Assembly: GCA_000165345.1 (NCBI GenBank)
Contig: CM000434.1
Span: 608,001 to 672,000, forward strand
DNA: 64,000 nt
Direction of reading: 5' to 3'
Part shown: positions 1 through 60,835 of the stretch, piece after piece
Layout of the letters: the number at the start of each line of letters is the position of its first letter
How positions within the stretch are numbered: the first letter of the stretch is position 1
Program-made: the position numbers and the translations under genes
The notes under the pieces: model-generated
Databases searched by the model: none
The model's input: only the letters and a program-made list of their open reading frames with translations
Told to the model about the DNA's origin: nothing

Positions 1-417
1 AGTTTCTAAAATATGGCCAGCTTCTTTTGGACTCCAAGCAAGAAACAGAGTCATATTTAAGTCAAAACAAATATCAGTAACTTCCAAAATAGCCGCATCA
101 ATCGCACCAGAAGGAGGAATATCCACCAGACATAATAAAATTCTGACTTTATAGTTCTTCTGCAAGGATTCGATCCTCTTCCTCAAATATTGGTTGTGAA
201 GCTTGTGATATTTTATGCTAATAAAAACCACAGCATCATACTTACCAACAAGAAAGTCTGGTACAATATTCTGAAAATCGTAAGGGACATTACACACATG
301 AGCAAGTATTGGATTTCCTCTTTGTCTAGTACTGGCTATTATCATTTCCCCTGCCTTGTCATCAAAAAACTTAGGCTGGGATTCCTTCTTTACAATATCT
401 TCTTCTTGGCTTGACAT
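1..417 (-). CDS. ERCC1: DNA excision repair protein ERCC1, N-terminal part; the gene runs off the left edge of the window. Start ATG on the minus strand at about 415-417.
   Basis: Minus-strand translation from the ATG (revcomp of cat at 415-417) gives MSSQEEDIVKKESQPKFFDDKAGEMIIASTRQRGNPILAHVCNVPYDFQNIVPDFLVGKYDAVVFISIKYHKLHNQYLRKRIESLQKNYKVRILLCLVDIPPSGAIDAAILEVTDICFDLNMTLFLAWSPKEAGHILE, with no stop before position 1. This follows the conserved ERCC1 central-domain pattern (RGNP...VPW/Y.F...PD[YF]..G....L[FY]LSL.YH.L.P.Y...R...L......R[VI]LL..VD......L.E........TL.LAWS.EEAG.YLE). It is not in the ORF track because it is truncated, and the listed 190..414 plus-strand ORF is antisense to it. 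Confidence 0.7.
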   Translation of the reverse strand, partial: MSSQEEDIVKKESQPKFFDDKAGEMIIASTRQRGNPILAHVCNVPYDFQNIVPDFLVGKYDAVVFISIKYHKLHNQYLRKRIESLQKNYKVRILLCLVDIPPSGAIDAAILEVTDICFDLNMTLFLAWSPKEAGHILET

Positions 418-2338: not shown

Positions 2339-5300
2339 ATGAAAAAAAAAGATGAAAAAGAGTTTGTTCCAAGCTGTGGGCATTGCCAAAACTATTTTCT
2401 TTACAAGAGAATAAGATCAATTATAGGAAAAGGTGAAAAGATAAATTTGACAAACTTATTTGAATTTAATTCATCTTCTAGCCAACCAAATGAATCTAAT
2501 CATAACATAGGAGGAAGACTTGTTTATACCAAAAATGGTAACTTTCTATTTCTCCAAGAGAATATTATGAATAAAAGTTCAAATCCAAGATTTGTTTTGA
2601 TACCATGCGAAATTTCTGGGAAATTTAGGTCAAACATAATGCTTAAATGTTGTGAGACAGAATTTTCATTTGTTTCTTGTTGGATAATCATAAGAAATTG
2701 GGCAATTGTGAAAATGAAGACTGGAGAGCCAAGTGCTCCTTTAAGAAGCATCCTGCTTAATAGGCATTTAAACCCCTCTAAGTTTCAGGACGAAAGTACA
2801 ACCTTTAAAGTCTTAAGAAAGAGGCTTTTATGTTTCAGTGCATCAACAGCTTTTTGGATACCATATACTTTTTCTAATGAAGAACATATAGTAAATGGGC
2901 TAAAGGGTATTCAAATTACAGGAATAATTACTCATATATCTACCGTGGTAATGCATAAGGGAAACAATAATATGAGCTCAACAAGTATGATAGTCAATGA
3001 TGAAAAAGCATCAATGATAAGTGGCTCTGAAACAAGTGACTCAGAAGAAATACAATTAAACTCACAGATTAATAAGTTTGGTATAGATGAGATTCTGAGA
3101 CCATCCGAAAATTCAGTGTGTGAATTAAGTTTTTCAATTGTAATAAAATCAATATCAAATAATCAAGAATTTGTAATTTTCTTCCCTGGAGTAAATCTCT
3201 CAATAAATAGATTTGTCCTGGAATGGAGGAATATTTACAGATTTGAAAATGTGATTGCAGGATCTGTATCAATTCATAACTTTGGAGAATCATCAAGAGA
3301 GAAAAAGTGTCTAATAGCTAATAAATGTACGTCAATAGTTGCAGAACCCGTAACTGAAGATATCTCAAGAACAATCTCCGAAACTCCTAAGTTAATTCAA
3401 ATTGAGAAAGTACTTGGATTTGGTGTATATGAAATAAAAACCGACAAAATACCTATTAAACTCTTTCTCCAAAATTCAAATATTCATGAGACATCATTAG
3501 GATGCTCAATTTCAAAAGGTTCAATTTTATGGGTTAGAAATTTTCGTGTAATTACCAAAGAATTTGGAGATCGTTCGCTTCCAATAGGGATTTCAATAGA
3601 ACCTTCATCTGACTGGGGACTAGAAAGACATTCTAAATTCGCATTAGAAAAAGTAACTGCCTTAAAAAAGACAATATGGGAAAACTTACCATTACATATT
3701 CAAACGATCGGTCACGAGTATTTGGAATTTAATGATTTTAATTCAGAAATCCATAACAATCCAGAGATTGTTTTCCATCATCCATGGGATATCAGAAACC
3801 TTTGCTATTTACATTATAGTCTTTATGTAGATTTGTTCAATTTAGTTAGAACTTCAGCAGATAAATCTCAAGTTCTTCCAATATTGCTAGTTCAGATTAT
3901 TTCAAACCAAAAAAGTGGCTCGCCAATTTCAGTTTCCAAGGATTTTGAAATCAAATATCCAGATGGGACAACAACTCCCCAAAATTCTTGCTCGCTCATT
4001 TGTAGTAACTGCTTGCATTTCCAAAATAATATTACTCATCCCAGCCAAACAGTTGAACTTAAATCAAAAGATTCACAACAGTGTCCAATATCTTGCACAG
4101 ATACATTGTTTGGACTCTGGAAAATTGCCTCGATTGAAGAATGGGTAGATTTGATTAAAAGCCTTGAAGTATCACAAAAACTTAGCTTAGGAAATTCATT
4201 TTCCTCTAATATTACTTTATATATTGAATATTTGTATTATATCAGAGGCGATGTCAGAAAACTACCTATATATCAAAAAAATCAAAAGAATGATAAAACT
4301 AGTGATGTCTCGAATAATGTTAATAGCCTCAGATGTTCGTTTATTGCAGAGGAAAGCTTTCCTGTATATATAGGTTCTTTTGGCCATTTTCTAGCTGAAG
4401 TTATCATGGAAAAGGCTTTTGAATCAAATGCTTGGATCTCAAATGTGTATTTCATCAAGACACCTTCCTTATATGACTCAAAAAATAACTATTATCCACT
4501 ATTTATTGATTGTAATTCAGAAGTAAATTTTTTATTCAATTCAAACTGCTCAAAATATTCTTTTGAAAAAAAATTTGTATTTATCAAGAAAGCAATGTTA
4601 AGATTATACAATCAAAGGATTTCGTTTTTTGTCAAAATTTCAGATATTGTATGTATTAATTTTGAAAATTGTTTCCTTAAACCTCCAATTTCACAAGGAA
4701 TTCTTTCAGGAAATCAAATAAGAGGAATTTTATTATTTATTTGCGATAAAGAAATTCAAAGCTCAGTTGAAGGATGCAAGCAGTATTTACATTGTCTCCC
4801 ATTTTTTAAAACATATTCAAAACTTTCTAAATTAGGAATTCAATTTGATAAGAATGAAATAATTGAATCTCAAATAGAAAAGTTTCAAGTACCTCCTAAT
4901 TGGTATTCATTCACAAGTGTTTCAAGGTTTGTGTTAATTCTAGATAGACCAATTTTACAAAATTCTGAAGTTTTGCTATCTGAAATTCAGGAAAAAGAAT
5001 TTTTTGAAGCCATTAATACATTTGATATTGAAAAGATTGAATATTTAATAATTAAAGAACTTGTTTTTCCATCCCAGTTTTCTTCAGATGCTATGAATTT
5101 TGACAAAACTAAATCATATATAGAAATAAAGCTATTGGGTAACAATAACGAATCTATATTATGGCCTGAATGCTTAAAATCCCCATTTTCCTATAAATTT
5201 GAAACCAATATTCAAGCTAATCAGGGTTCCTATACTGTATTTGATATTAAACATTGGACCGAATACTTATTTGAATGGCAGGTTCTTTCAAGGAGAAGTT

Positions 5301-7168
5301 CTATCATTTATAGATCCACAAAGGTTGCTAGGAATGAAATAATTAATTTTTTTACTAGCTTTTATCAGCAAATTTCTCTCGAATATGATAATGATTCAGA
5401 AATACAAATTTCTTTAGAAAGTGTAAAAATACTTGATATTATTCACTTCGTTGGACTCAATCCAAACAATAAGTATGGACGTTGGTCAATTATAAGAGTA
5501 ACTACAGATCTAAGTACTAAATTTAAGCCTGGAACTACAAATCTTCAGAGTATTTATTTGATTGCAGATCCTCCTTGGAACTCAGGATGGATTGACATTT
5601 GGTTCTCCGAGGAAGACGCTTTAACACATGATATTAAATTACTTCTCCCAGGGGAAACAGCATCTTTTACGAATATTAGAGTTGAAAAATTGGTCAATTC
5701 TTTCCCTCCTCTTTCTCCAGTTTCTGATATTATGATTTCTGTTTTAGATGAGTCTTTTGAATTTCCAGGACAAGATAAATCTATTTACTTTAATATGTAT
5801 GATCAATCTCAAACAAAATTGGAAAAGACAACATTTTCTGACTTTAATCAGGCTCAAACTGAAAGGAAAAAAACTGGAAACACTTTAAGTATTTTCAATA
5901 ATGGAGCAATTATCTTTAGAACATCAATTCAAAACGCAATGATCAAAAGAGATAAAGCTCAAATATATTCAAGTAGTCAAAATTTTAACAATCCTGGAAA
6001 AGATTTATTTTTTTCATATCTTTATTTTTCCCCCACCTCAATTTCAGATGTTGTCTCATATTATCATTTTGATCCAGGATATCAAGAATATATTCAGAAA
6101 GTCCATTGGAAAACATGTGATCCATGGATTGACAAATTTTTAATTTTGAATGGACCCAAAAAAATTGAAAAAGAACCTAATGACAACAAAAAGGATGAAT
6201 CTAACAAACTTGTAAATTCTTTCTCACAATCTAAAAACCTTAACAACTCTCATCAGATCTTTAATATTCATAAAATTCCAAATCCATATATTCTTGCCCC
6301 AGATGGAGCTCCAATTACTCGAAATTTTTTGTCTCTTATGAAAACCAATCATACATGTTTTATTGCCTTTAATAGAGCATACTGTATTGACACCGAAATA
6401 TCTACAGATATTTCTCAGATTAACTTTAATCCTAGTTTCAGCCCAATACTAAACTTTGATGAATTCAAAAGCATAGATCCAGATTTAGTGTTTTCGCTCA
6501 AAAGTTCAATATTGCATATTCAGAAAATCAGTTTAAGCTGGTTTTGTCTTAATTGTCTTCAGACAATTGTAGGAGACTCAGTTTGTCTTTGTGGAGTGGA
6601 TATTGGAAAATCATCTCTTTGGAAATCTCTTGCAATTTATTTAATTGGAGCTTTGGAGATAGAAACAACAGATTCAATGCCCAAGATACTTCCCTTTACC
6701 ATGTCAAACTGGAACGTGATCAAACTTCTTGCTTATGTAGATAAAATCGGTGATCAAGAGATAGAATCAAAAATCTTATACAATCGCATTATTGAACTTG
6801 CTGATATCATTTGGAATCACATGGAAGGTTTAAATAACTCTTTAGGAATTCAAACAATATACTCTTTTGGAAAAGCCCCAACAAATTGTGAATTTCTGAG
6901 TTCTATGGAAGATAATTCAGAAGAATGTAAGCCTGTTGGGATAATTGGACAAGTACAGTTGTTTGATAGAGATAAAGCTCTTAATATACCTACTGACCCT
7001 ATTTCTAATTTGGAAATGGAAGTATGTCTAAGATGTGTCCAATCTTCAAATAAAAATACGCTTTCATACATTTATTTACACGTAATTAGATGGAAGGTCA
7101 GAAACACCAAGTTAGAACTAGAAGAAAAACTCAAAAATATTAATTTTCAATTTGATCTTGAAATTTAG
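2339..7168 (+). CDS. Very large (1609 aa) hypothetical protein with no domain I can recognise
   Basis: A 4.8 kb uninterrupted ORF starting at ATG 2339. It is Cys-containing, Asn/Ser/Ile-rich and of low complexity, with no motifs recognisable by eye. Its TAG stop at 7166-7168 overlaps the stop of the convergent gene at 7165. Confidence 0.55.
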   Translation: MKKKDEKEFVPSCGHCQNYFLYKRIRSIIGKGEKINLTNLFEFNSSSSQPNESNHNIGGRLVYTKNGNFLFLQENIMNKSSNPRFVLIPCEISGKFRSNIMLKCCETEFSFVSCWIIIRNWAIVKMKTGEPSAPLRSILLNRHLNPSKFQDESTTFKVLRKRLLCFSASTAFWIPYTFSNEEHIVNGLKGIQITGIITHISTVVMHKGNNNMSSTSMIVNDEKASMISGSETSDSEEIQLNSQINKFGIDEILRPSENSVCELSFSIVIKSISNNQEFVIFFPGVNLSINRFVLEWRNIYRFENVIAGSVSIHNFGESSREKKCLIANKCTSIVAEPVTEDISRTISETPKLIQIEKVLGFGVYEIKTDKIPIKLFLQNSNIHETSLGCSISKGSILWVRNFRVITKEFGDRSLPIGISIEPSSDWGLERHSKFALEKVTALKKTIWENLPLHIQTIGHEYLEFNDFNSEIHNNPEIVFHHPWDIRNLCYLHYSLYVDLFNLVRTSADKSQVLPILLVQIISNQKSGSPISVSKDFEIKYPDGTTTPQNSCSLICSNCLHFQNNITHPSQTVELKSKDSQQCPISCTDTLFGLWKIASIEEWVDLIKSLEVSQKLSLGNSFSSNITLYIEYLYYIRGDVRKLPIYQKNQKNDKTSDVSNNVNSLRCSFIAEESFPVYIGSFGHFLAEVIMEKAFESNAWISNVYFIKTPSLYDSKNNYYPLFIDCNSEVNFLFNSNCSKYSFEKKFVFIKKAMLRLYNQRISFFVKISDIVCINFENCFLKPPISQGILSGNQIRGILLFICDKEIQSSVEGCKQYLHCLPFFKTYSKLSKLGIQFDKNEIIESQIEKFQVPPNWYSFTSVSRFVLILDRPILQNSEVLLSEIQEKEFFEAINTFDIEKIEYLIIKELVFPSQFSSDAMNFDKTKSYIEIKLLGNNNESILWPECLKSPFSYKFETNIQANQGSYTVFDIKHWTEYLFEWQVLSRRSSIIYRSTKVARNEIINFFTSFYQQISLEYDNDSEIQISLESVKILDIIHFVGLNPNNKYGRWSIIRVTTDLSTKFKPGTTNLQSIYLIADPPWNSGWIDIWFSEEDALTHDIKLLLPGETASFTNIRVEKLVNSFPPLSPVSDIMISVLDESFEFPGQDKSIYFNMYDQSQTKLEKTTFSDFNQAQTERKKTGNTLSIFNNGAIIFRTSIQNAMIKRDKAQIYSSSQNFNNPGKDLFFSYLYFSPTSISDVVSYYHFDPGYQEYIQKVHWKTCDPWIDKFLILNGPKKIEKEPNDNKKDESNKLVNSFSQSKNLNNSHQIFNIHKIPNPYILAPDGAPITRNFLSLMKTNHTCFIAFNRAYCIDTEISTDISQINFNPSFSPILNFDEFKSIDPDLVFSLKSSILHIQKISLSWFCLNCLQTIVGDSVCLCGVDIGKSSLWKSLAIYLIGALEIETTDSMPKILPFTMSNWNVIKLLAYVDKIGDQEIESKILYNRIIELADIIWNHMEGLNNSLGIQTIYSFGKAPTNCEFLSSMEDNSEECKPVGIIGQVQLFDRDKALNIPTDPISNLEMEVCLRCVQSSNKNTLSYIYLHVIRWKVRNTKLELEEKLKNINFQFDLEI

Positions 7169-8874
7169 TTAAGATACATTCTTTTGCTACTTCTTTTGCA
7201 AAGAACTAACTTAATAAGTAAAAGTATTAATATTATAAAAGATATTAATGCATAGAATAAAATTGAATAAATGCTTGAGCTCATCTGTAACTCTTGGTAG
7301 TAAATATAATTATTAGGAAAACCCATCTTTGTAAGCTTGTTAATTAATTGGATTGGGAATAGCTTTTTTATTGGAATATGAAATATTGAGGGTATAATAT
7401 TAAAACTTGAATTACCTGCAATACTAATTGTGTAATTCTTTTCTGGAACGAACAAGCGAATATATTTATATAAACTTGGATCAGAAAATATACCTGTAAT
7501 CATGAGGTAGAGCCCATATGATATTACTGATTTACTAGATTTATTTAAATTAAAGAGTTGGAACCTTGGTATAACTTCCATTAGTGTCGTTAAAAACGAC
7601 CCCATGAAGAATACTGCCACCATATGTGGTATAATCCAATATAAGTTGAACGAATTAGCAACAATGTCAATGATTGAGAACTTGGAAATGTTTGGAATTT
7701 CAAATATGAAATGTATTAATATCAAATTCAGCATGAAAAAGATCACAACAGAAATTGATGATAAACAAAGAATACTGATAGAGCTCATTCTACCAATTGG
7801 AGTTATAGAATCTATCTCAAACCTTTCCTTGAATTTTTTAGTGAGGCCAAATAGATTTTTATAAAGGATGGCAAATATAAGAGATCCAATTGCAGATCCA
7901 AGTAGGAAAACTACGCAATTTAATGTATAATAAGTCAAATTTAAACTTAACAGATATGCATCTGAACGATCTCCATTAAATCCCAAATCTTCATATCTTT
8001 CAAAAGAAAATGATGAAGTTATCTGATAGAAACTATATATTTCACTCACTATATTTGTGAATAATCCTACCAAAAATATCACAAAATAGATGATAATTAT
8101 TTTTATTTTGTCTTTGCTTTCATCACTATTATTTGAGATGCTGCTTTCCAATTTCTTGTAGTAGTAATTATCCTGAAGAACCATTTCAAGAGCTGAATTA
8201 TTATTTGAGCTCTTAAAGTCCTTATAAATAGAAATGACAAGTACAAGAGAAATTAATGTTGAAACTCCTCCAGTAAGAATCCAAATTATACGAGAATATG
8301 TTGTGACAACTTCATCATTTCCTTTTAGATAAACCATTGTAGAAACTGCAATAGATAAAAATGATCCAAAACTCTTGTAGCAAGATACTGCTCCAAATAA
8401 CTTGGCTGTTTCAGGGCTATTAAGTTTATAGTTTACAGAAATGACTTGTACTGATGGCTCCAATGCTCCATATGAAAAAGAAAGCAAATATCTACAGAGA
8501 ATCAAAGTAATGTACGAACTAGAAAATGGTTGTATCATAGATATCAAGCCACAAACCATAAATGATATACTTAAAACTATTTGTGGCTTCAAATAATTGC
8601 AAACTAGACTCCAAAACAAAAAGCCAATGCATCCAATAAGATGTTGGGAAAAAAGTATCCATTCTGAGTTCAAATAACCTGCTGATTTCCTCCAAATATA
8701 TCCAAATAAAAGCATATTTACAAATAACCTTTCGCTGAATCCTTGCAATAGACACATAAACAGTGTAAATTTGAATGAATGAGAAATTGGTCTAGATTTA
8801 GAGATGGTTACATTTTGACTTTCCTCGCTGTAGTCTGAAGTAAAATCACTAGAAGTTGTTTCTTCTCTAATCAT
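7165..8874 (-). CDS. Polytopic membrane protein, probably a 12-TM MFS-like or folate-biopterin-type transporter
   Basis: ATG is the revcomp of cat at 8872-8874. The 569 aa product has about 11-12 hydrophobic helices arranged 6 + central loop + 6 (e.g. LFMCLLQGF, IGCIGFLFWSLV, LSISFMVCGLISM, IWILTGGVSTLISLVLVI, IIIYFVIFLVGLF, CVVFLLGSAIGSLIFAIL, ISVVIFFMLNLILIHFIF, MVAVFFMGSFLTTL, SILFYALISFIILILLLI). The family assignment is inferred from topology only. Confidence 0.55.
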   Translation of the reverse strand: MIREETTSSDFTSDYSEESQNVTISKSRPISHSFKFTLFMCLLQGFSERLFVNMLLFGYIWRKSAGYLNSEWILFSQHLIGCIGFLFWSLVCNYLKPQIVLSISFMVCGLISMIQPFSSSYITLILCRYLLSFSYGALEPSVQVISVNYKLNSPETAKLFGAVSCYKSFGSFLSIAVSTMVYLKGNDEVVTTYSRIIWILTGGVSTLISLVLVISIYKDFKSSNNNSALEMVLQDNYYYKKLESSISNNSDESKDKIKIIIIYFVIFLVGLFTNIVSEIYSFYQITSSFSFERYEDLGFNGDRSDAYLLSLNLTYYTLNCVVFLLGSAIGSLIFAILYKNLFGLTKKFKERFEIDSITPIGRMSSISILCLSSISVVIFFMLNLILIHFIFEIPNISKFSIIDIVANSFNLYWIIPHMVAVFFMGSFLTTLMEVIPRFQLFNLNKSSKSVISYGLYLMITGIFSDPSLYKYIRLFVPEKNYTISIAGNSSFNIIPSIFHIPIKKLFPIQLINKLTKMGFPNNYIYYQELQMSSSIYSILFYALISFIILILLLIKLVLCKRSSKRMYLN

Positions 8875-28198: not shown

Positions 28199-28234
28199 AT
28201 ATGGCGCCATTATAGCAAATGTGGCGCCGCCAAT
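28199..28234. promoter_or_regulatory. Tandem E2F-like GGCGCC boxes (tggcgccat ... tggcgccgccaat) in the divergent promoter between two membrane-protein genes
   Basis: 28201-28233 atggcgccattatagcaaatgtggcgccgccaattaatgg, read directly. It sits about 130 bp upstream of the minus-strand ATG at 28071. Confidence 0.5.
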
Positions 28235-32013: not shown

Positions 32014-32023
32014 TGGCGCCTAT
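32014..32023. promoter_or_regulatory. E2F-like box (ctggcgccta) about 95 bp upstream of the OTU gene ATG
   Basis: Read directly at 32014-32023. Confidence 0.35.
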
Positions 32024-32115
32024 ATGGAAAGTTCACCCGCCTTATTTCTTTTTATGTCGAAAGAAGCAGAATTGTCAAAAGGAAATGTTGTAATGAGAAA
32101 AACTAGAAACAGCAG

Positions 32116-33315
32116 ATGAGAGAGGAATGCTTGCTTCCATATGAAGTGAGAGTGAAAAATATTGAAGGAGATGGTAACTGTTTGTTTAGGTCTATAGGAA
32201 GCCAGCTTTACGGGGAGAGTGAACACCATGAAATAATTAGATCTGCCTGCATGGATTACGTAGATTTAAACAAGGAATCATTTTCTGGATTTGTACATGA
32301 ATATTCTTCAATTGAAAAATATATTCAAGAGAAGAGAAAACTGGGGGTCTGGGCTGATAATATTGAAGTTCAAGCACTAAGTGACCTGTATCGTATTCCA
32401 ATATATATATTTGAAAAGGTCAGAAATAGTAAACTGAATGCTAGCTTATTAGAGAAGCATAGACTAGAAGGCTTTTCTGGTACTATGTCAGAAAATATTT
32501 TCTATGAGAACAAGGAATTTGTTTATAAGTTACTTTGTAAGATAGAGCCAAGGCATTCAAGTTTCCTTGACCAGATTAAGAATTATTATTCAAATAGTAG
32601 GCCAATTCGATTGCTTTATTACAATGACTTACATTATGACTCTTTATTTTATAGAAGAGAGCATCAAACCCCAATAATTAACAAGGATATTGGAATAATT
32701 GAGGCTGAGAGCATTAAGAACCTTAAAGTTTACAGAGCCATTGCAAAACAAAAAGAAAAAAGTAGTAAGTTTCCTGTTAGAGGCTCTAAAATAAAAACCG
32801 ACCAGGTCGGTCATTTTAATCATACATCATATGCACTACTAAGGAAGAAGGCAATTAAAAAGTTCCCTGTTAATTATGGATCTAGCAGTGAAAGTGACAA
32901 CTATGTCGCAAAATCGCCATTTTTCCTATCCGTTAAGAATAAATACCGAGACGAACCCGAATCATTTTTCGAGGGGAATTACCTAGATAAAATCTCTGAG
33001 GGTGAAACTCATTTTGAAAAGCTTCACCCCAAGAGCAAAGAGCCACATAGCAAGTTTATATCTGGGCCCAAATCATTTTCCGAAAGGGCAATAGGAAAGC
33101 CCGCCTGTGTTTCAAAAATTAAGTCATTAAATAATACTCATTTGGGAGTAGTTGATAGATACGCCAGGGATGTTCAACTCTCTTCTCATCAAAAGGAATT
33201 TAAAAAGCTGTTGATTAACGATTCACCTCGATTGTCTTCAACCCCAAATCCAAGAAAAAAGTGTGTTGCAATATATTGTCCACAAATTTTGAAACAAAGT
33301 GCGTTTAGAAATTAA
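32116..33315 (+). CDS. OTU-domain cysteine protease (deubiquitinase, OTUD5-like)
   Basis: ATG at 32116. The OTU catalytic core is DGNCLFRSIGSQLYGESEHHEIIRSACMDYV...KYIQEKRKLGVWADNIEVQALSDLYRIPIYIFE: the Cys box DGNCLFR, the conserved W-[AG]-[DG]-x-[IV]E[VIM]QA, and a downstream His region (YYNDLHYDS). Confidence 0.8.
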   Translation: MREECLLPYEVRVKNIEGDGNCLFRSIGSQLYGESEHHEIIRSACMDYVDLNKESFSGFVHEYSSIEKYIQEKRKLGVWADNIEVQALSDLYRIPIYIFEKVRNSKLNASLLEKHRLEGFSGTMSENIFYENKEFVYKLLCKIEPRHSSFLDQIKNYYSNSRPIRLLYYNDLHYDSLFYRREHQTPIINKDIGIIEAESIKNLKVYRAIAKQKEKSSKFPVRGSKIKTDQVGHFNHTSYALLRKKAIKKFPVNYGSSSESDNYVAKSPFFLSVKNKYRDEPESFFEGNYLDKISEGETHFEKLHPKSKEPHSKFISGPKSFSERAIGKPACVSKIKSLNNTHLGVVDRYARDVQLSSHQKEFKKLLINDSPRLSSTPNPRKKCVAIYCPQILKQSAFRN

Positions 33316-33323
33316 ATTTAAAT

Positions 33324-34409
33324 ATGGACAGTAGAACTTGGTTTGAAGGAGTTTCTGACTGTTCCAAAAAAATAATTGAAGCTTTAAAAAGTGATAATCA
33401 CTTGTATGGGAGAGATTCTAATCATTTTGCAAAAGAAGGTTTATCGATATTTTATAGTTATGACTTATGCTCGAGTTCTTGCTCAGTTCCAACTGTAGTT
33501 ACAGAATCAAACACTTTATCATCTGAAACAAAAGATAACAGAATGCTATTCTCTTCAGTAGATGAGGAGACTCTATTGCTTCTTCAAGAAGCATTAAAAT
33601 ACCATTATTCTGGAGGAGAAGGAACTTTCATTAATTTGGGAACCCCAGTTAATGAGATAAATGGGCTAAATTCAGCTCATAAGATAGTGCATAGCCCTGA
33701 AATTACGGTTCCTAGTGATGATAAAGAAACAAAGGTTAATACCGAAACTGAAGAAGATATTTTTGAAGGTGTTGGGAGCATTTTTGACCATAAAGAGCAT
33801 AAAAGAACACGAACTAGATCTCTAGAAAGATCTTTAACTCCAGATTTAGATGAGTTTATTGAGAATGTTTACGATTTTAAAGAAGAAGCATTGCATAACA
33901 CTAATGTTCAATCGTCTATTCAATCTCAAGTGATACAAACTAGAAAAGATCAAAATTCTGCTCAAAGAAGCTTCGGATTAGCTTCTAGGACGAAAAATAG
34001 AAAGAGAAATATTGACTACTCATTGTTGTCAAGAAAAGGTCCTATGAGTGCTCCTGATAAGAGCTTTGAAAGCCTTAAACTTCCTCAATTTGAAGATTCT
34101 TCTTCTTCTTATGCAGAATGTTACCTAGAAGTTGACGGTGTATCACATTACGAAACTCATCATGAGGAGTTAGAATCTTCAAGTATTAGATCTCAAAACA
34201 AAGAGATGGAAGATTCATCTTCGGCTCGTGATAAATCAAAAAGAAATATCGATAAATACAAACAAAGGAGGAAAGATAAATCTGTTCATCAGGAATGGAA
34301 GTCTATCCAAAAAATTATGAACAAGCAAAATTTTAGGTCTCTTGAAACTTTTAAGAGTTTAATTAGTGATAACAATGGTTCAATTAAGAATAATTTTGGG
34401 CAAATATAA
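33324..34409 (+). CDS. Hypothetical Ser/Glu/Lys-rich protein (361 aa) that starts only 8 bp after the OTU gene's stop on the same strand
   Basis: ATG at 33324. It is in a different reading frame from the OTU ORF and has no recognisable domain. It is an open frame with gene-like composition. Confidence 0.45.
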   Translation: MDSRTWFEGVSDCSKKIIEALKSDNHLYGRDSNHFAKEGLSIFYSYDLCSSSCSVPTVVTESNTLSSETKDNRMLFSSVDEETLLLLQEALKYHYSGGEGTFINLGTPVNEINGLNSAHKIVHSPEITVPSDDKETKVNTETEEDIFEGVGSIFDHKEHKRTRTRSLERSLTPDLDEFIENVYDFKEEALHNTNVQSSIQSQVIQTRKDQNSAQRSFGLASRTKNRKRNIDYSLLSRKGPMSAPDKSFESLKLPQFEDSSSSYAECYLEVDGVSHYETHHEELESSSIRSQNKEMEDSSSARDKSKRNIDKYKQRRKDKSVHQEWKSIQKIMNKQNFRSLETFKSLISDNNGSIKNNFGQI

Positions 34410-42357: not shown

Positions 42358-42368
42358 TTTGGCGCCAA
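42358..42368. promoter_or_regulatory. E2F-like box TTTGGCGCCAA about 85 bp upstream of the SRP14 ATG
   Basis: tttttggcgccaact at 42356-42370, read directly. Confidence 0.45.
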
Positions 42369-43960: not shown

Positions 43961-44231
43961 TTTCACTAATTTTTATTTACACATTTCCCCATGTACCTTA
44001 AATATATGGCAAGAAAAGGCGCCAAAGTTCTCATAAGGAGTCATAAGTCAATAGCAATATTAAAATGTAAACGAAGTCCTAATTTATTAAGGAGAGTAAA
44101 TTACAGTTTAATGATACTCTTGATTTATTTAATAGGAAAAAGTATCTGGTCTATTACTTGAAGCTATATCTTGGGGAATCAATAGATCAAAAGAAGGTAA
44201 GAATTATTAGATTTGCCATATATAAGTCAAA

Positions 44232-49848: not shown

Positions 49849-49870
49849 TTGGCGCCAATTGCGCCAAAAT
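49849..49870. promoter_or_regulatory. Double E2F-like element cTTGGCGCCAATTGCGCCAAAA, 50-70 bp upstream of the SF3A2 ATG (minus strand)
   Basis: Read directly at 49849-49870. Confidence 0.5.
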
Positions 49871-59511: not shown

Positions 59512-60835
59512 TTAATATAATGCTAAATACTTACTTTCTATATTTTGTTTTAAAATAATATCGGGAGGAAGTCTTTTAATTACTTTTAATATATAGTTTG
59601 TGATTCCCAGATAAGTAAACCAATGTTTGAATTTCTTAATCTGTTCAAATTTGAATTTTAATTCATCTTCACTGAGTGAGTTTAAAATATCGAATAAATC
59701 TTCAATCTGAGAGATATGGATAACTATTCCAAGTCTCTCCATTAAATTCCCATATGGAATCCAATTTACATCGTCCCAAATATATATTGGAATAGTTCCT
59801 AATTGAACTGATTCATATAGTCGAAAAGAAGTTCTTCCGAACCCTCTAGGACATAAATGAAAAGTTGAACGTTGAATTACTTGTTTGAACTGATCTCCTT
59901 GATAGTGAATAAATTGGTTTGTTACATTTTCTAAAACCTTAAAGGGGGTAATTTTATCCAACATTTCATCAGTCACATTATAATATGAAAAAGTCTCAAA
60001 TAATTTTTTCCTAACAGGGAAGTGTTTTTTAACAATAGTTGAAGATACCCAAATATCCTTTTTTGCTTTAAGTCCTTCATATTGAAGTTCGCCTTTAATT
60101 AATGGTATAGGAACTTGTTTAAATCCAGTGGTTGCTCCTCCAGCATTGAATACTATTAGATTTGACATGGACATAAATTTCAATTTAGACTTTTTAAATC
60201 CTTCTGCATCCTATATTGAGTTAGAGTTATAAAAATGATTGAATATTTGGAATAATACCAAATATTTTAAAGCTTACCTGTAGTACAGTAAAATACATTG
60301 TTTCATTTTTAAGTGAATTTAATACATCCTGAGCTTCTTTTTTCCATTCTTTCTTTAAATCAAGCTCAACCTTATTTCTATGAATTGAAGTCCAAAATAT
60401 TGGGATGTAAACTGGAGGAATAGGTTCAGATTCATTACATACTTTGATTTGTTTTGTTGAATACTGTGTAATCCAATTGCAAAAGACTCCATCTTCTATC
60501 CATGGTCCCATATATCCTGAATAGTTTGTATTTAGTCTAGGCCTTAAATTTTTGGTTAGGTTGAAAATTCGGATTTGTTCATCACTTAAACATATTTCTG
60601 TGGTATTATCTCTATTTTGTTTTGTTATATTTTGCAAGTTTATTTGATCCAAATTTCCATCAAAATTCAAATTGCAGTCCAAATAGTCAAACTGAGGATA
60701 GTTTTCCAGGAAGAAACTCCTTGGATTATTATTGCTAGGAAATTCTTGGATGTACAGGTAAATTATTATTCCACCGGTAATTATTAGCATGCATGCAAAT
60801 TCTAATAAAATTAGAAAATTGCATGACAATTTCAT
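59512..60835 (-). CDS. Exostosin-like glycosyltransferase (GT47 family, type II membrane topology), two exons: 60278..60835 and 59512..60210, with a 67-bp intron at 60211..60277
   Basis: ATG is the revcomp of cat at 60833-60835. The signal-anchor is MKLSCNFLILLEFACMLIITGGIIIYLYI. The donor is CTACAG|GTAAGC and the acceptor AATATAG|GATGCAGAAGG, in frame (...YFTVLQ|DAEGFKKSKLKFMSMSNLIVFNAGG...). The downstream exon carries the exostosin/GT47 C-terminal signature STFHLCPRGFGRTSFRLYESVQLGTIPIYIWDD. The ORF track splits this gene into two ORFs, the second starting with a TTG. Confidence 0.7.

Follow-up and report, generated by a model that had tools for sequence, protein, structure and literature searches.

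Two head-to-tail genes at a tight junction: the OTU deubiquitinase gene of Cryptosporidium parvum and its downstream neighbour are separate, conserved and probably co-transcribed

When one open reading frame stops only a few nucleotides before the next one begins on the same strand, does the junction lie within a single broken gene or between two genes? The question arises in a stretch of 64,000 nt of Cryptosporidium parvum chromosome 6 (the window), where the ORF of an OTU deubiquitinase, CpOTU, is followed after 8 nt by a second long ORF, cgd6_2760 (Table 1). A first-pass annotation, made from the sequence alone, regarded the pair as possibly one gene split by a frameshift and offered a sequencing or assembly indel, a programmed frameshift or two co-transcribed genes as candidate explanations. 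Public gene models are divided on the same point. Two genes are annotated in C. parvum (IOWA-ATCC; KAL5368149/50), C. hominis (TU502, CHM), C. tyzzeri and C. meleagridis (cmbei), and the deposited fused models, of 739, 731, 750 and 706 aa, come from C. hominis, C. meleagridis UKMEL1, C. canis and C. felis; the 739-aa model bears the homology-derived name 'OTU domain-containing protein 5-A'. Here we compare the junction across nine Cryptosporidium species and conclude that the best explanation overall, to which we assign a probability of about 0.8, is a pair of independent head-to-tail genes transcribed as a dicistronic mRNA.

Table 1. Features of the CpOTU/cgd6_2760 locus, with positions given in the coordinates of the window
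Feature	Position	Strand	Description
Palindromic E2F-type site GGCGCC (within TGGCGCC)	32015-32020	.	~100 nt 5′ of the OTU ATG
CpOTU (cgd6_2750)	32116-33315	+	ORF, 399 aa
CpOTU catalytic core	residues ~1-182	+	the remaining ~217 aa form a C-terminal extension
CpOTU conserved C-terminal tail	33262-33312	+	CVAIYCPQILKQSAFRN; stretch cut out as 'intron' in fused models
CpOTU stop codon, genuine	33313-33315	+	TAA
Stop-start spacer, 8 nt	33316-33323	+	ATTTAAAT
cgd6_2760 (CPATCC_002813)	33324-34409	+	ATG ORF, 361 aa, hypothetical protein
cgd6_2760 N-terminal peptide	from ATG 33324	+	MDSRTWFEGVSDCSK

Rechecking the coordinates showed that the geometry had been described exactly: the stop, the ATG, the 8-nt gap and the shared strand are all in place, and the two ORFs are offset by +2 (33324-32116 = 1208 = 2 mod 3). 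The frame of cgd6_2760 is closed on its 5′ side by a TAG at 33306-33308, and the two frames are thus jointly open over only 4 nt (33309-33312). Tandem ORFs of 150 aa or more leave 12 gaps in the window (8, 52, 155, 346 ... nt), of which this one is the smallest; since it also measures 6 to 13 nt in seven species, the short gap is not a chance feature. We further agree with the first-pass annotation that so short a spacer cannot accommodate a promoter or a terminator.

The upstream gene encodes a 399-aa OTUD5-like OTU deubiquitinase. The CpOTU translation contains the Pfam OTU domain PF02338 (E 8.7e-17) with the catalytic motifs GDGNCLFRS (Cys motif DGNCLF) and LHYDSL (His motif), and is 100% identical to the NCBI entry 'cysteine protease [C. 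parvum Iowa II]'; the gene id cgd6_2750 is taken from PMC6107107. Human OTUD5 is the closest solved structure (PDB match, E 4.8e-19), and the initial OTUD5-like assignment is therefore correct for the catalytic core. The accompanying proposal, that the downstream ORF would supply a missing C-terminal tail, fails because the 399-aa protein already has an extension of its own. According to reviews that relay Ju et al. 2014, recombinant CpOTU carrying this 217-aa extension is an active DUB and the extension is needed for activity. Between species, the core has a dN/dS of 0.03-0.14 and the extension one of 0.13-0.34. The protein ends in ...QSAFRN, and a C-V-A-I-x-C motif in the tail is found in all nine Cryptosporidium species. 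In the last 16 OTU codons, variable columns among five species number 1, 1 and 9 at codon positions one, two and three; because the variation is almost confined to third positions, these codons are evidently translated up to the stop.

The OTU ORF ends at the homologous position in nine of nine species. Its stop codon is TAA, TAA, TGA, TAG, TAG, TAG and TAA in the seven species with a short gap; C. bovis and C. ryanae both use TGA. The gap itself measures 6, 8, 13, 79 or 83 nt: five species, C. parvum among them, have 8 nt with ATTTAA invariant within the spacer, C. canis has 13 nt and C. felis 6 nt. Not every species keeps the stop and the start close together, the gaps of C. bovis and C. ryanae being ~80 nt long. 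The frame relation varies too, with an offset of +2 in the five 8-nt species and C. bovis, +1 in C. canis and C. ryanae and 0 in C. felis, where two in-frame stops lie between the ORFs (TAA CTG TAA). Synonymous sites are better conserved beside the junction, where 6 of 11 are invariant; elsewhere the figure is 31 of 210 (Fisher p = 0.004, for a window picked post hoc), a difference that speaks in favour of co-transcription. Asking whether the orthologue is one long ORF, as the first-pass annotation had advised, thus returned two ORFs with an intervening stop in every species, and its headline, one gene that a frameshift has split, is refuted. A stop that is kept while all three stop codons are used, a gap and a frame relation that vary over nine species, third-position variation that reaches the OTU stop, and a downstream ATG and N-terminus conserved under purifying selection together show that CpOTU and cgd6_2760 are two distinct, conserved genes and that the stop and the start between them are real.

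This comparison also bears on the explanations that would join the two ORFs into one product. An indel in this C. parvum assembly could have split a single ORF, and one extra A in the AAA run at 33309-33311 would indeed fuse the frames. However, the 2294-nt stretch of the two ORFs is identical between the window and an independent C. parvum assembly. Contigs of different assemblies encode the identical products, 5 of them the 399-aa and 6 the 361-aa protein, and the same two products are found in three assemblies of C. hominis and in five or more of C. parvum. With the stop found in nine species under differing stop codons and offsets, the comparative data already refute an indel, whose probability we put at practically nil. 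Fusion during translation, by programmed ribosomal frameshifting or stop-codon readthrough, would accord with how close the ORFs lie and with their offset of +2 (equivalent to -1) in C. parvum and its four nearest relatives, but the 4-nt zone in which slippage could take place (sequence there GCG TTT AGA AAT TAA) holds no X XXY YYZ heptamer. Nor is there a stable RNA structure where a stimulatory one would lie, 5-9 nt downstream: 33290-33420 folds with -19.9 kcal/mol, and shuffled sequences average -19.5 (z = -0.13). The offset is not conserved in C. canis or in C. felis with its two stops, and a conserved AUG in good context would be needless. We consider frameshifting or readthrough extremely improbable, and neither it nor the indel is supported as a candidate.

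A short intron at the junction would yield a single gene, as in the fused models of 706-750 aa, or an alternatively spliced fused isoform alongside the two proteins. The first-pass annotation had reported that no GT..AG combination restores a continuous frame; this was wrong, as we enumerated 136 such pairs shorter than 500 nt, including 33261-33334 (74 nt) and 33303-33331 (29 nt), with 33265-33308 (44 nt) besides. Yet frame-restoring pairs by themselves are no evidence of an intron, because many are expected by chance wherever two long open frames adjoin. The four public fused models speak for an intron in that they exist for four species, but they invoke four different ones (74, 44, 34 and 123 nt). 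The donors of fused-model and candidate introns are GTGTGT, GTTGCA, GTTTAG and GTTCTC, none of them the GTAAGT with which 84% of Cryptosporidium introns begin (PMC2483917). The interior of the supposed intron moreover evolves as OTU-frame coding sequence, as the third-position bias described above indicates. All seven short-gap species have the GT and AG that the 44-nt type needs, but these belong to Val (GTN) and Arg (AGA) codons, and in C. canis and C. felis splicing there would run into a premature stop, 5 aa and 11 aa on, respectively; in three of the seven the 74-nt type has lost its GT or AG. Among the candidate types, no homologous intron functional in all of these seven species was found. 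An intron across the junction would also not require a conserved stop and ATG, yet both are conserved. A junction intron is thus very improbable in our judgement, and the fused 706-750-aa models are prediction artefacts.

The second of the two genes, cgd6_2760, encodes a Cryptosporidium-specific hypothetical protein with its own conserved start at ATG 33324. Conservation begins at M-D, the N-terminus MD.RTWFEGVSD being conserved, and the start stands in the context ttaaatATGg, and eight of the nine species share this A at -3 and G at +4. A dN/dS of 0.23-0.35 indicates purifying selection. Homologues turned up only in Cryptosporidium, both in an exhaustive profile search and in a search with a wider profile, and C. 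muris, C. andersoni and C. baileyi yielded no orthologue. The protein is predicted to be largely disordered with short conserved motifs; its AlphaFold model is of low confidence (mean pLDDT 43, pTM 0.16), sequence searches of the PDB gave no match, and Pfam returned only SLX9 and RED_C matches, all below threshold. A relationship to the spliceosomal protein RED/IK was considered and set aside: RED_N (PF07808) is absent, and RED_C (PF07807) stays below threshold, with E 0.14-3.6 in four of eight orthologues, each time at the C-terminal REWKSIQKIM helix. An hhalign comparison with a RED sequence validated with Pfam gave 55% probability over just 26 columns. This sequence resemblance may serve as a lead only and is insufficient for membership.

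How, then, would the second gene be transcribed? Because 8 nt are too short for a promoter or a terminator, the polymerase must reach cgd6_2760 through the OTU gene. Upstream of CpOTU lies the only GGCGC between 28228 and 42361. It is part of a palindromic E2F-type site, which five species share at -98 to -104 alongside a conserved CCCGCC block and which is probably the promoter element of the two-gene unit. No E2F-type site was found in the C. parvum OTU coding sequence, nor near the second ATG in the five species. Many C. parvum genes have no E2F site, and its absence before cgd6_2760 therefore carries little weight. A synonymous-site scan of the last 60 OTU codons found no embedded conserved element (1 of 27 sites invariant), a freedom of synonymous change that tells neither for nor against an internal promoter. 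Most species have no poly(A) signal A[AG]TAAA close to the OTU stop, but the downstream stop is equally without one, which makes its absence uninformative.

Expression of this kind has precedent in the same organism. Xiao et al. 2025 (PMC11761812; bioRxiv 10.1101/2025.01.17.633476) describe 201 polycistronic transcripts in C. parvum, mostly dicistronic and covering ~10.7% of its genes. Their polycistrons typically carry one peak of open chromatin and one E2F motif, at the 5′ end, although E2F motifs also occur in many internal spacers; two thirds of the dicistrons are out of frame, and their ORFs have Kozak-like starts (PMC11761812). At 132 of the 201 polycistronic loci both polycistronic reads and internal downstream monocistronic reads are present, and in C. 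parvum sporozoites the downstream monocistrons are usually scarcer than the polycistronic reads and lack open chromatin of their own (PMC11761812). By this analogy and from the features of the locus, CpOTU and cgd6_2760 are probably co-transcribed, and two co-transcribed genes is the one candidate of the first-pass annotation that survives, in keeping with the nine-species data, the E2F site and the published polycistrons. A single dicistronic mRNA would start from the conserved E2F-site promoter, and a shorter monocistronic mRNA would probably arise in addition from a start inside the 3′ coding region of OTU.

The two genes might nevertheless form no functional dicistron. The second protein would then be made only from a start site of its own inside the OTU coding region, and the OTU mRNA would end within or beyond cgd6_2760, so that the transcripts overlap and yet are separate, in a compact genome. 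Cap-dependent scanning would suffice for the second ORF and no special mechanism would be called for, internal downstream monocistronic reads occur at most polycistronic loci, and in C. bovis and C. ryanae the long spacer precedes the gene. On the other side stand the lack of a conserved nucleotide-level element in the last 60 OTU codons, the missing E2F-type site before cgd6_2760, and the usually lower abundance of sporozoite downstream monocistrons without their own open chromatin (PMC11761812). We regard this reading, an exclusive internal start with overlapping but separate transcripts, as unlikely, though by no means far-fetched.

Ribosomes terminate at the OTU stop, and the second protein is made from its own conserved AUG 8 nt downstream. 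Translation of cgd6_2760 could proceed from the shorter mRNA or by reinitiation after the OTU stop. Leaky scanning to the second start is implausible because the OTU ORF of 399 codons contains 15 internal ATGs, and reinitiation after an ORF of this length is normally very inefficient in eukaryotes; thus a purely dicistronic route to the second protein has no known mechanism. Xiao et al. state the mechanism of second-ORF translation in Cryptosporidium dicistrons as unknown (PMC11761812). One proposal is that the 6-13 nt junction, conserved in the intestinal Cryptosporidium clade, represents translational coupling by reinitiation at the next AUG without a calicivirus-type TURBS, an idea that we hold to be doubtful. 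If true, such a coupling junction would tie the synthesis of a disordered Cryptosporidium-specific protein to that of a deubiquitinase. In six of the nine species an uORF terminates within an AUGA that overlaps the OTU start, and this could be a further stop-start junction at the locus.

For a specialist the result is mostly ordinary and unsurprising. It nevertheless settles a database conflict: the fused OTU proteins of 739, 731, 750 and 706 aa are artefacts and CpOTU has 399 aa, a length that matters to drug-target users and to orthology tables. It also shows that a frame-restoring GT..AG between neighbouring ORFs is not intron evidence. With its spacer of promoterless length and its conserved arrangement, the pair offers an uncomplicated candidate case of the polycistronic expression newly described in C. 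parvum and a good test locus for the translation of second ORFs in Cryptosporidium dicistrons.

Several known phenomena resemble the pair in part. Like gene-model fusion artefacts, it consists of adjacent same-strand ORFs in a compact genome that have been joined by invented short introns; such artefacts are no biological system and account for the database conflict, not for the locus itself. Termination-reinitiation of the TURBS type is exemplified by calicivirus VP1/VP2 and by the UAAUG of influenza B M1/BM2. These systems share with the pair a long upstream ORF, a stop a few nucleotides from the next AUG and a spacing conserved among relatives. The pair differs in that its stop and start do not overlap, that its gap widens to ~80 nt in C. 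bovis and C. ryanae, and that it involves a nuclear cellular gene known here from sequence. A motif search found TURBS motif 1 (UGGGA; TGGGA in DNA), defined as complementary to 18S rRNA helix 26, absent within 150 nt 5′ of the OTU stop in all nine species. In green algae, Gallaher et al. reportedly described in 2021 non-trans-spliced, capped and polyadenylated nuclear mRNAs with two conserved ORFs whose synteny is kept across species. Two conserved ORFs and cross-species synteny of the pair are equally seen at CpOTU/cgd6_2760, whereas the algal dicistrons are thought to use leaky scanning past a short upstream ORF in weak context, unlike the long, ATG-rich CpOTU ORF. The closest likeness in organism is to the polycistrons of Xiao et al. 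(PMC11761812), among which an 8-nt spacer would be very short; the conservation of a 6-13 nt spacer over seven species is a feature that the paper apparently does not treat. Shared with them are same-strand, out-of-frame ORFs of unrelated function with Kozak-like starts, a single E2F-type motif 5′ of the first gene only and a spacer too short for a promoter, which make the pair a candidate member of this group.

The junction between the OTU deubiquitinase gene (CpOTU) and the ORF that follows it has exactly the geometry described in the first-pass annotation, with a stop TAA at 33313-33315 and an ATG at 33324, offset by +2. A TAG at 33306-33308 closes the downstream frame, leaving just 4 nt where both frames are open at once. 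For the ORFs in the window that reach 150 aa, neighbours in tandem are separated by 8, 52, 155, 346, 382 nt and onward; convergent neighbours lie close together, and no divergent gap is shorter than 164 nt. Because the other tandem and the divergent gaps are larger, 8 nt is an outlier among gaps required to hold a promoter. One convergent pair overlaps by 4 nt at the 3′ ends (7165-7168), and the 3′ UTRs from its two strands necessarily overlap; other convergent pairs are spaced 19-47 nt apart. GC content (~30-37 %) and long, intron-free ORFs are as expected for a compact genome.

Coordinates of features at the OTU locus and elsewhere in the window
Feature	Position	Strand	Detail
OTU gene (cgd6_2750)	32116-33315	+	399 aa
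Downstream ORF (cgd6_2760)	33324-34409	+	361 aa
Spacer ATTTAAAT	33316-33323	+	between OTU stop and downstream ATG
E2F-type palindrome TGGCGCC	32014-32020		~100 nt upstream of OTU ATG; conserved in five species
CCCGCC block			~80 nt upstream of OTU ATG; conserved in five species
E2F-type core GGCGC, examples	28203-28228, 32015-32020, 42361-42366, 44018-44023, 49851-49865
Upstream ORF	32054-32119		21 codons
Modelled intron, C. hominis OLQ16415.1 and PPA63497.1	33261-33334		74 nt, at the corresponding window position; 739 aa, "OTU domain-containing protein 5-A"
Modelled intron, C. meleagridis UKMEL1 POM84591.1	33265-33308		44 nt, at the corresponding window position; 731 aa
Modelled intron, C. 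canis KAJ1613321.1			34 nt; 750 aa
Modelled intron, C. felis KAF7457068.1			123 nt; 706 aa
Fused-model introns in fetched loci	L007 4158-4191; L008 4076-4198; L003 5150-5193
Convergent ORFs	2339-7168; 7165-8874	+; -
ORF pair, possibly one exostosin-like gene	60835-60227; 60174-59512	-	202 aa; 220 aa; 52 nt apart

The locus was retrieved from eight further species or assemblies, giving nine for comparison. The gene order RRM protein, OTU, downstream ORF, RCC1 protein (opposite strand) and long ORF is kept at all of them. On this comparative evidence the OTU stop is a functional terminator, neither an indel artefact nor a frameshift site, because it is retained while using all three stop codons and because the gap and frame offset after it vary.

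The OTU/downstream junction in nine species or assemblies
Source	OTU (aa)	Stop	Gap (nt)	Offset
C. parvum	399	TAA	8	+2
C. meleagridis	399	TAA	8	+2
Chipmunk genotype I	400	TGA	8	+2
Logan SRR31860986	405	TAG	8	+2
Logan SRR18693150	403	TAG	8	+2
C. canis	403	TAG	13	+1
C. felis	387	TAA	6	0; second in-frame TAA within spacer
C. bovis	474	TGA	83	+2
C. ryanae	479	TGA	79	+1

In Logan SRR31860986, a Cryptosporidium relative (locus L002, OTU CDS 609-1826), the OTU gene has a GC content of 47 %; the other sources range from 33 to 35 %. Compared with C. parvum its synonymous sites have reached saturation, yet the spacer is still exactly 8 nt long and the TTTAGAAAT-stop-ATTTAA context is preserved.

Both ORFs behave as coding sequence. 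Columns that vary in the alignment of the final 16 OTU codons (xKCVAIYCP and KQxxFRN) number 1/1/9 at codon positions 1/2/3, so the OTU frame is translated right up to its stop; the C-V-A-I-x-C motif of this tail occurs in 9/9 species. The downstream ORF has a dN/dS of 0.23-0.35, comparable to the OTU C-terminal extension (0.13-0.34). Its amino-acid conservation starts at Met-Asp, with an in-frame stop 0-6 codons 5′ of the ATG in every species. By these measures it is a real gene starting at 33324.

The headline proposal of the first-pass annotation, a single gene split by a frameshift, is refuted by the stop, gap and frame comparison together with these coding tests; its suggested ortholog comparison returns a working two-ORF model in 9/9 species, not one long ORF. 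An assembly indel fares no better, since 2294/2294 nt agree with an independent C. parvum assembly and stop codon, gap and offset vary across species. The OTU core is indeed OTUD5-like, as had been proposed, but the downstream ORF is not needed to supply a missing tail: CpOTU already bears ~217 residues past the core, and their deletion abolishes recombinant activity according to reviews of Ju et al. 2014. The 399-aa product is therefore complete and active. Programmed frameshifting and readthrough were rejected: there is no slippery heptamer within the 4-nt zone, no RNA structure 3′ of the junction (z = -0.13) and no constant offset, and in C. felis two in-frame stops intervene.

Contrary to the first-pass annotation, GT..AG pairs that restore the frame do exist, and public models use them to fuse the two ORFs (deposited proteins P0017, P0025, P0026 and P0027). 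The four models use four different introns, 0/4 with a GTAAGT donor; Cryptosporidium introns start with GTAAGT in 84 % of cases and have a median length of 61 nt (PMC2483917). When homologous sites of the 44-nt and 74-nt types were checked in seven species, the GT and AG of the former were retained only as Val and Arg codons, splicing there left only 5 aa (C. canis) or 11 aa (C. felis) before a stop, and the latter had lost GT or AG in 3/7. We thus reject the fused models as artefacts. Separate genes are annotated in C. parvum (IOWA-ATCC and KAL5368149/50), C. hominis (TU502 and CHM), C. tyzzeri and C. meleagridis (cmbei), and the conflict between public annotations at this locus is resolved. 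The fused entries had made 90 % protein-database clustering merge the unrelated 399-aa and 361-aa proteins, concealing the C. parvum downstream protein from homology search. The outcome is opposite for the minus-strand pair at 59512-60835, which looks like one exostosin-like gene with a ~48-nt intron: the stop codon falls within its junction sequence GTATTATT...CAATATAG, the 202-aa ORF has no Pfam match and the similarity of the 220-aa ORF to Exostosin_GT47 is confined to the C-terminal end of the profile (positions 203-292 of 293, E 4.7e-9).

The OTU ORF matches NCBI "cysteine protease [Cryptosporidium parvum Iowa II]" at 100 % identity. Cluster look-up gave CAD98564.1, EAZ51523.1 and QOY41157.1 (CPATCC_002812) for OTU, listed as cgd6_2750 in a review table, and CAD98565.1, EAK89912.1 and QOY41158.1 (CPATCC_002813, "hypothetical protein") for the downstream ORF, which the orthologue ids cmbei_6002760 and CHM_6g2760 place at cgd6_2760. 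No homologues of the downstream protein were detected outside Cryptosporidium; inside, they occur in the intestinal clade and in C. bovis, C. xiaoi and C. ryanae. Most of the protein is predicted disordered (pLDDT 43), with conserved motifs ETLLLLQE, EDIFxGVG, RSLERSxTPDLDxF, IDYSLxSR, SYAECYLEVDG and REWKSIQKIM. Below-threshold RED_C matches in its C-terminal helix and an hhalign alignment of 26 columns with a RED sequence offer only a lead towards a possible RED relationship. Conserved adjacency is the only evidence found for a functional link with OTU.

As the first-pass annotation had noted, 8 nt cannot hold a promoter, and transcription of the second gene must therefore come through OTU. 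No GGCGC, the E2F-type core, occurs between 32020 and 42361. The whole window holds 26 against 8.5 expected (0/100 shuffles reach 26), mostly palindromic GGCGCC; a motif count of this kind agrees with reports that E2F sites dominate promoters in Cryptosporidium. At the second AUG, 8/9 species have A at -3 and G at +4. Invariant synonymous sites are 6/11 next to the junction versus 31/210 elsewhere (p = 0.004, post hoc), and the OTU start region is comparably conserved (7/22). From the spacer, the E2F-site pattern and these junction features we consider a dicistronic mRNA carrying both ORFs likely, with a probability of about 0.6. Leaky scanning to the second ORF is implausible because OTU contains 15 internal ATGs. 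The TURBS motif is absent, and true termination-reinitiation at the junction seems improbable. Transcripts from an additional internal start are a plausible main template for translating the second ORF. Upstream of OTU, ORFs whose TGA overlaps the OTU start codon (AUGA) are present in 6/9 species (here and at fetched loci L001, L002, L003, L004 and L009); they and a conserved block GTCAAAAGGAAATG at ~-45 may represent a regulatory uORF or 5′ UTR element.

Of the proposed pair of co-transcribed genes, the two genes are thus established by comparison and coding tests, and co-transcription is the best-supported reading. Xiao et al. described 201 polycistronic transcripts in C. parvum spanning 423 genes (10.7 %), mostly dicistrons, two thirds out of frame and frequently accompanied by internal monocistronic transcripts (PMC11761812). 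The OTU pair, a candidate known here from sequence, matches this description. The type of arrangement is already known, and this pair is a new and well-conserved example of it.
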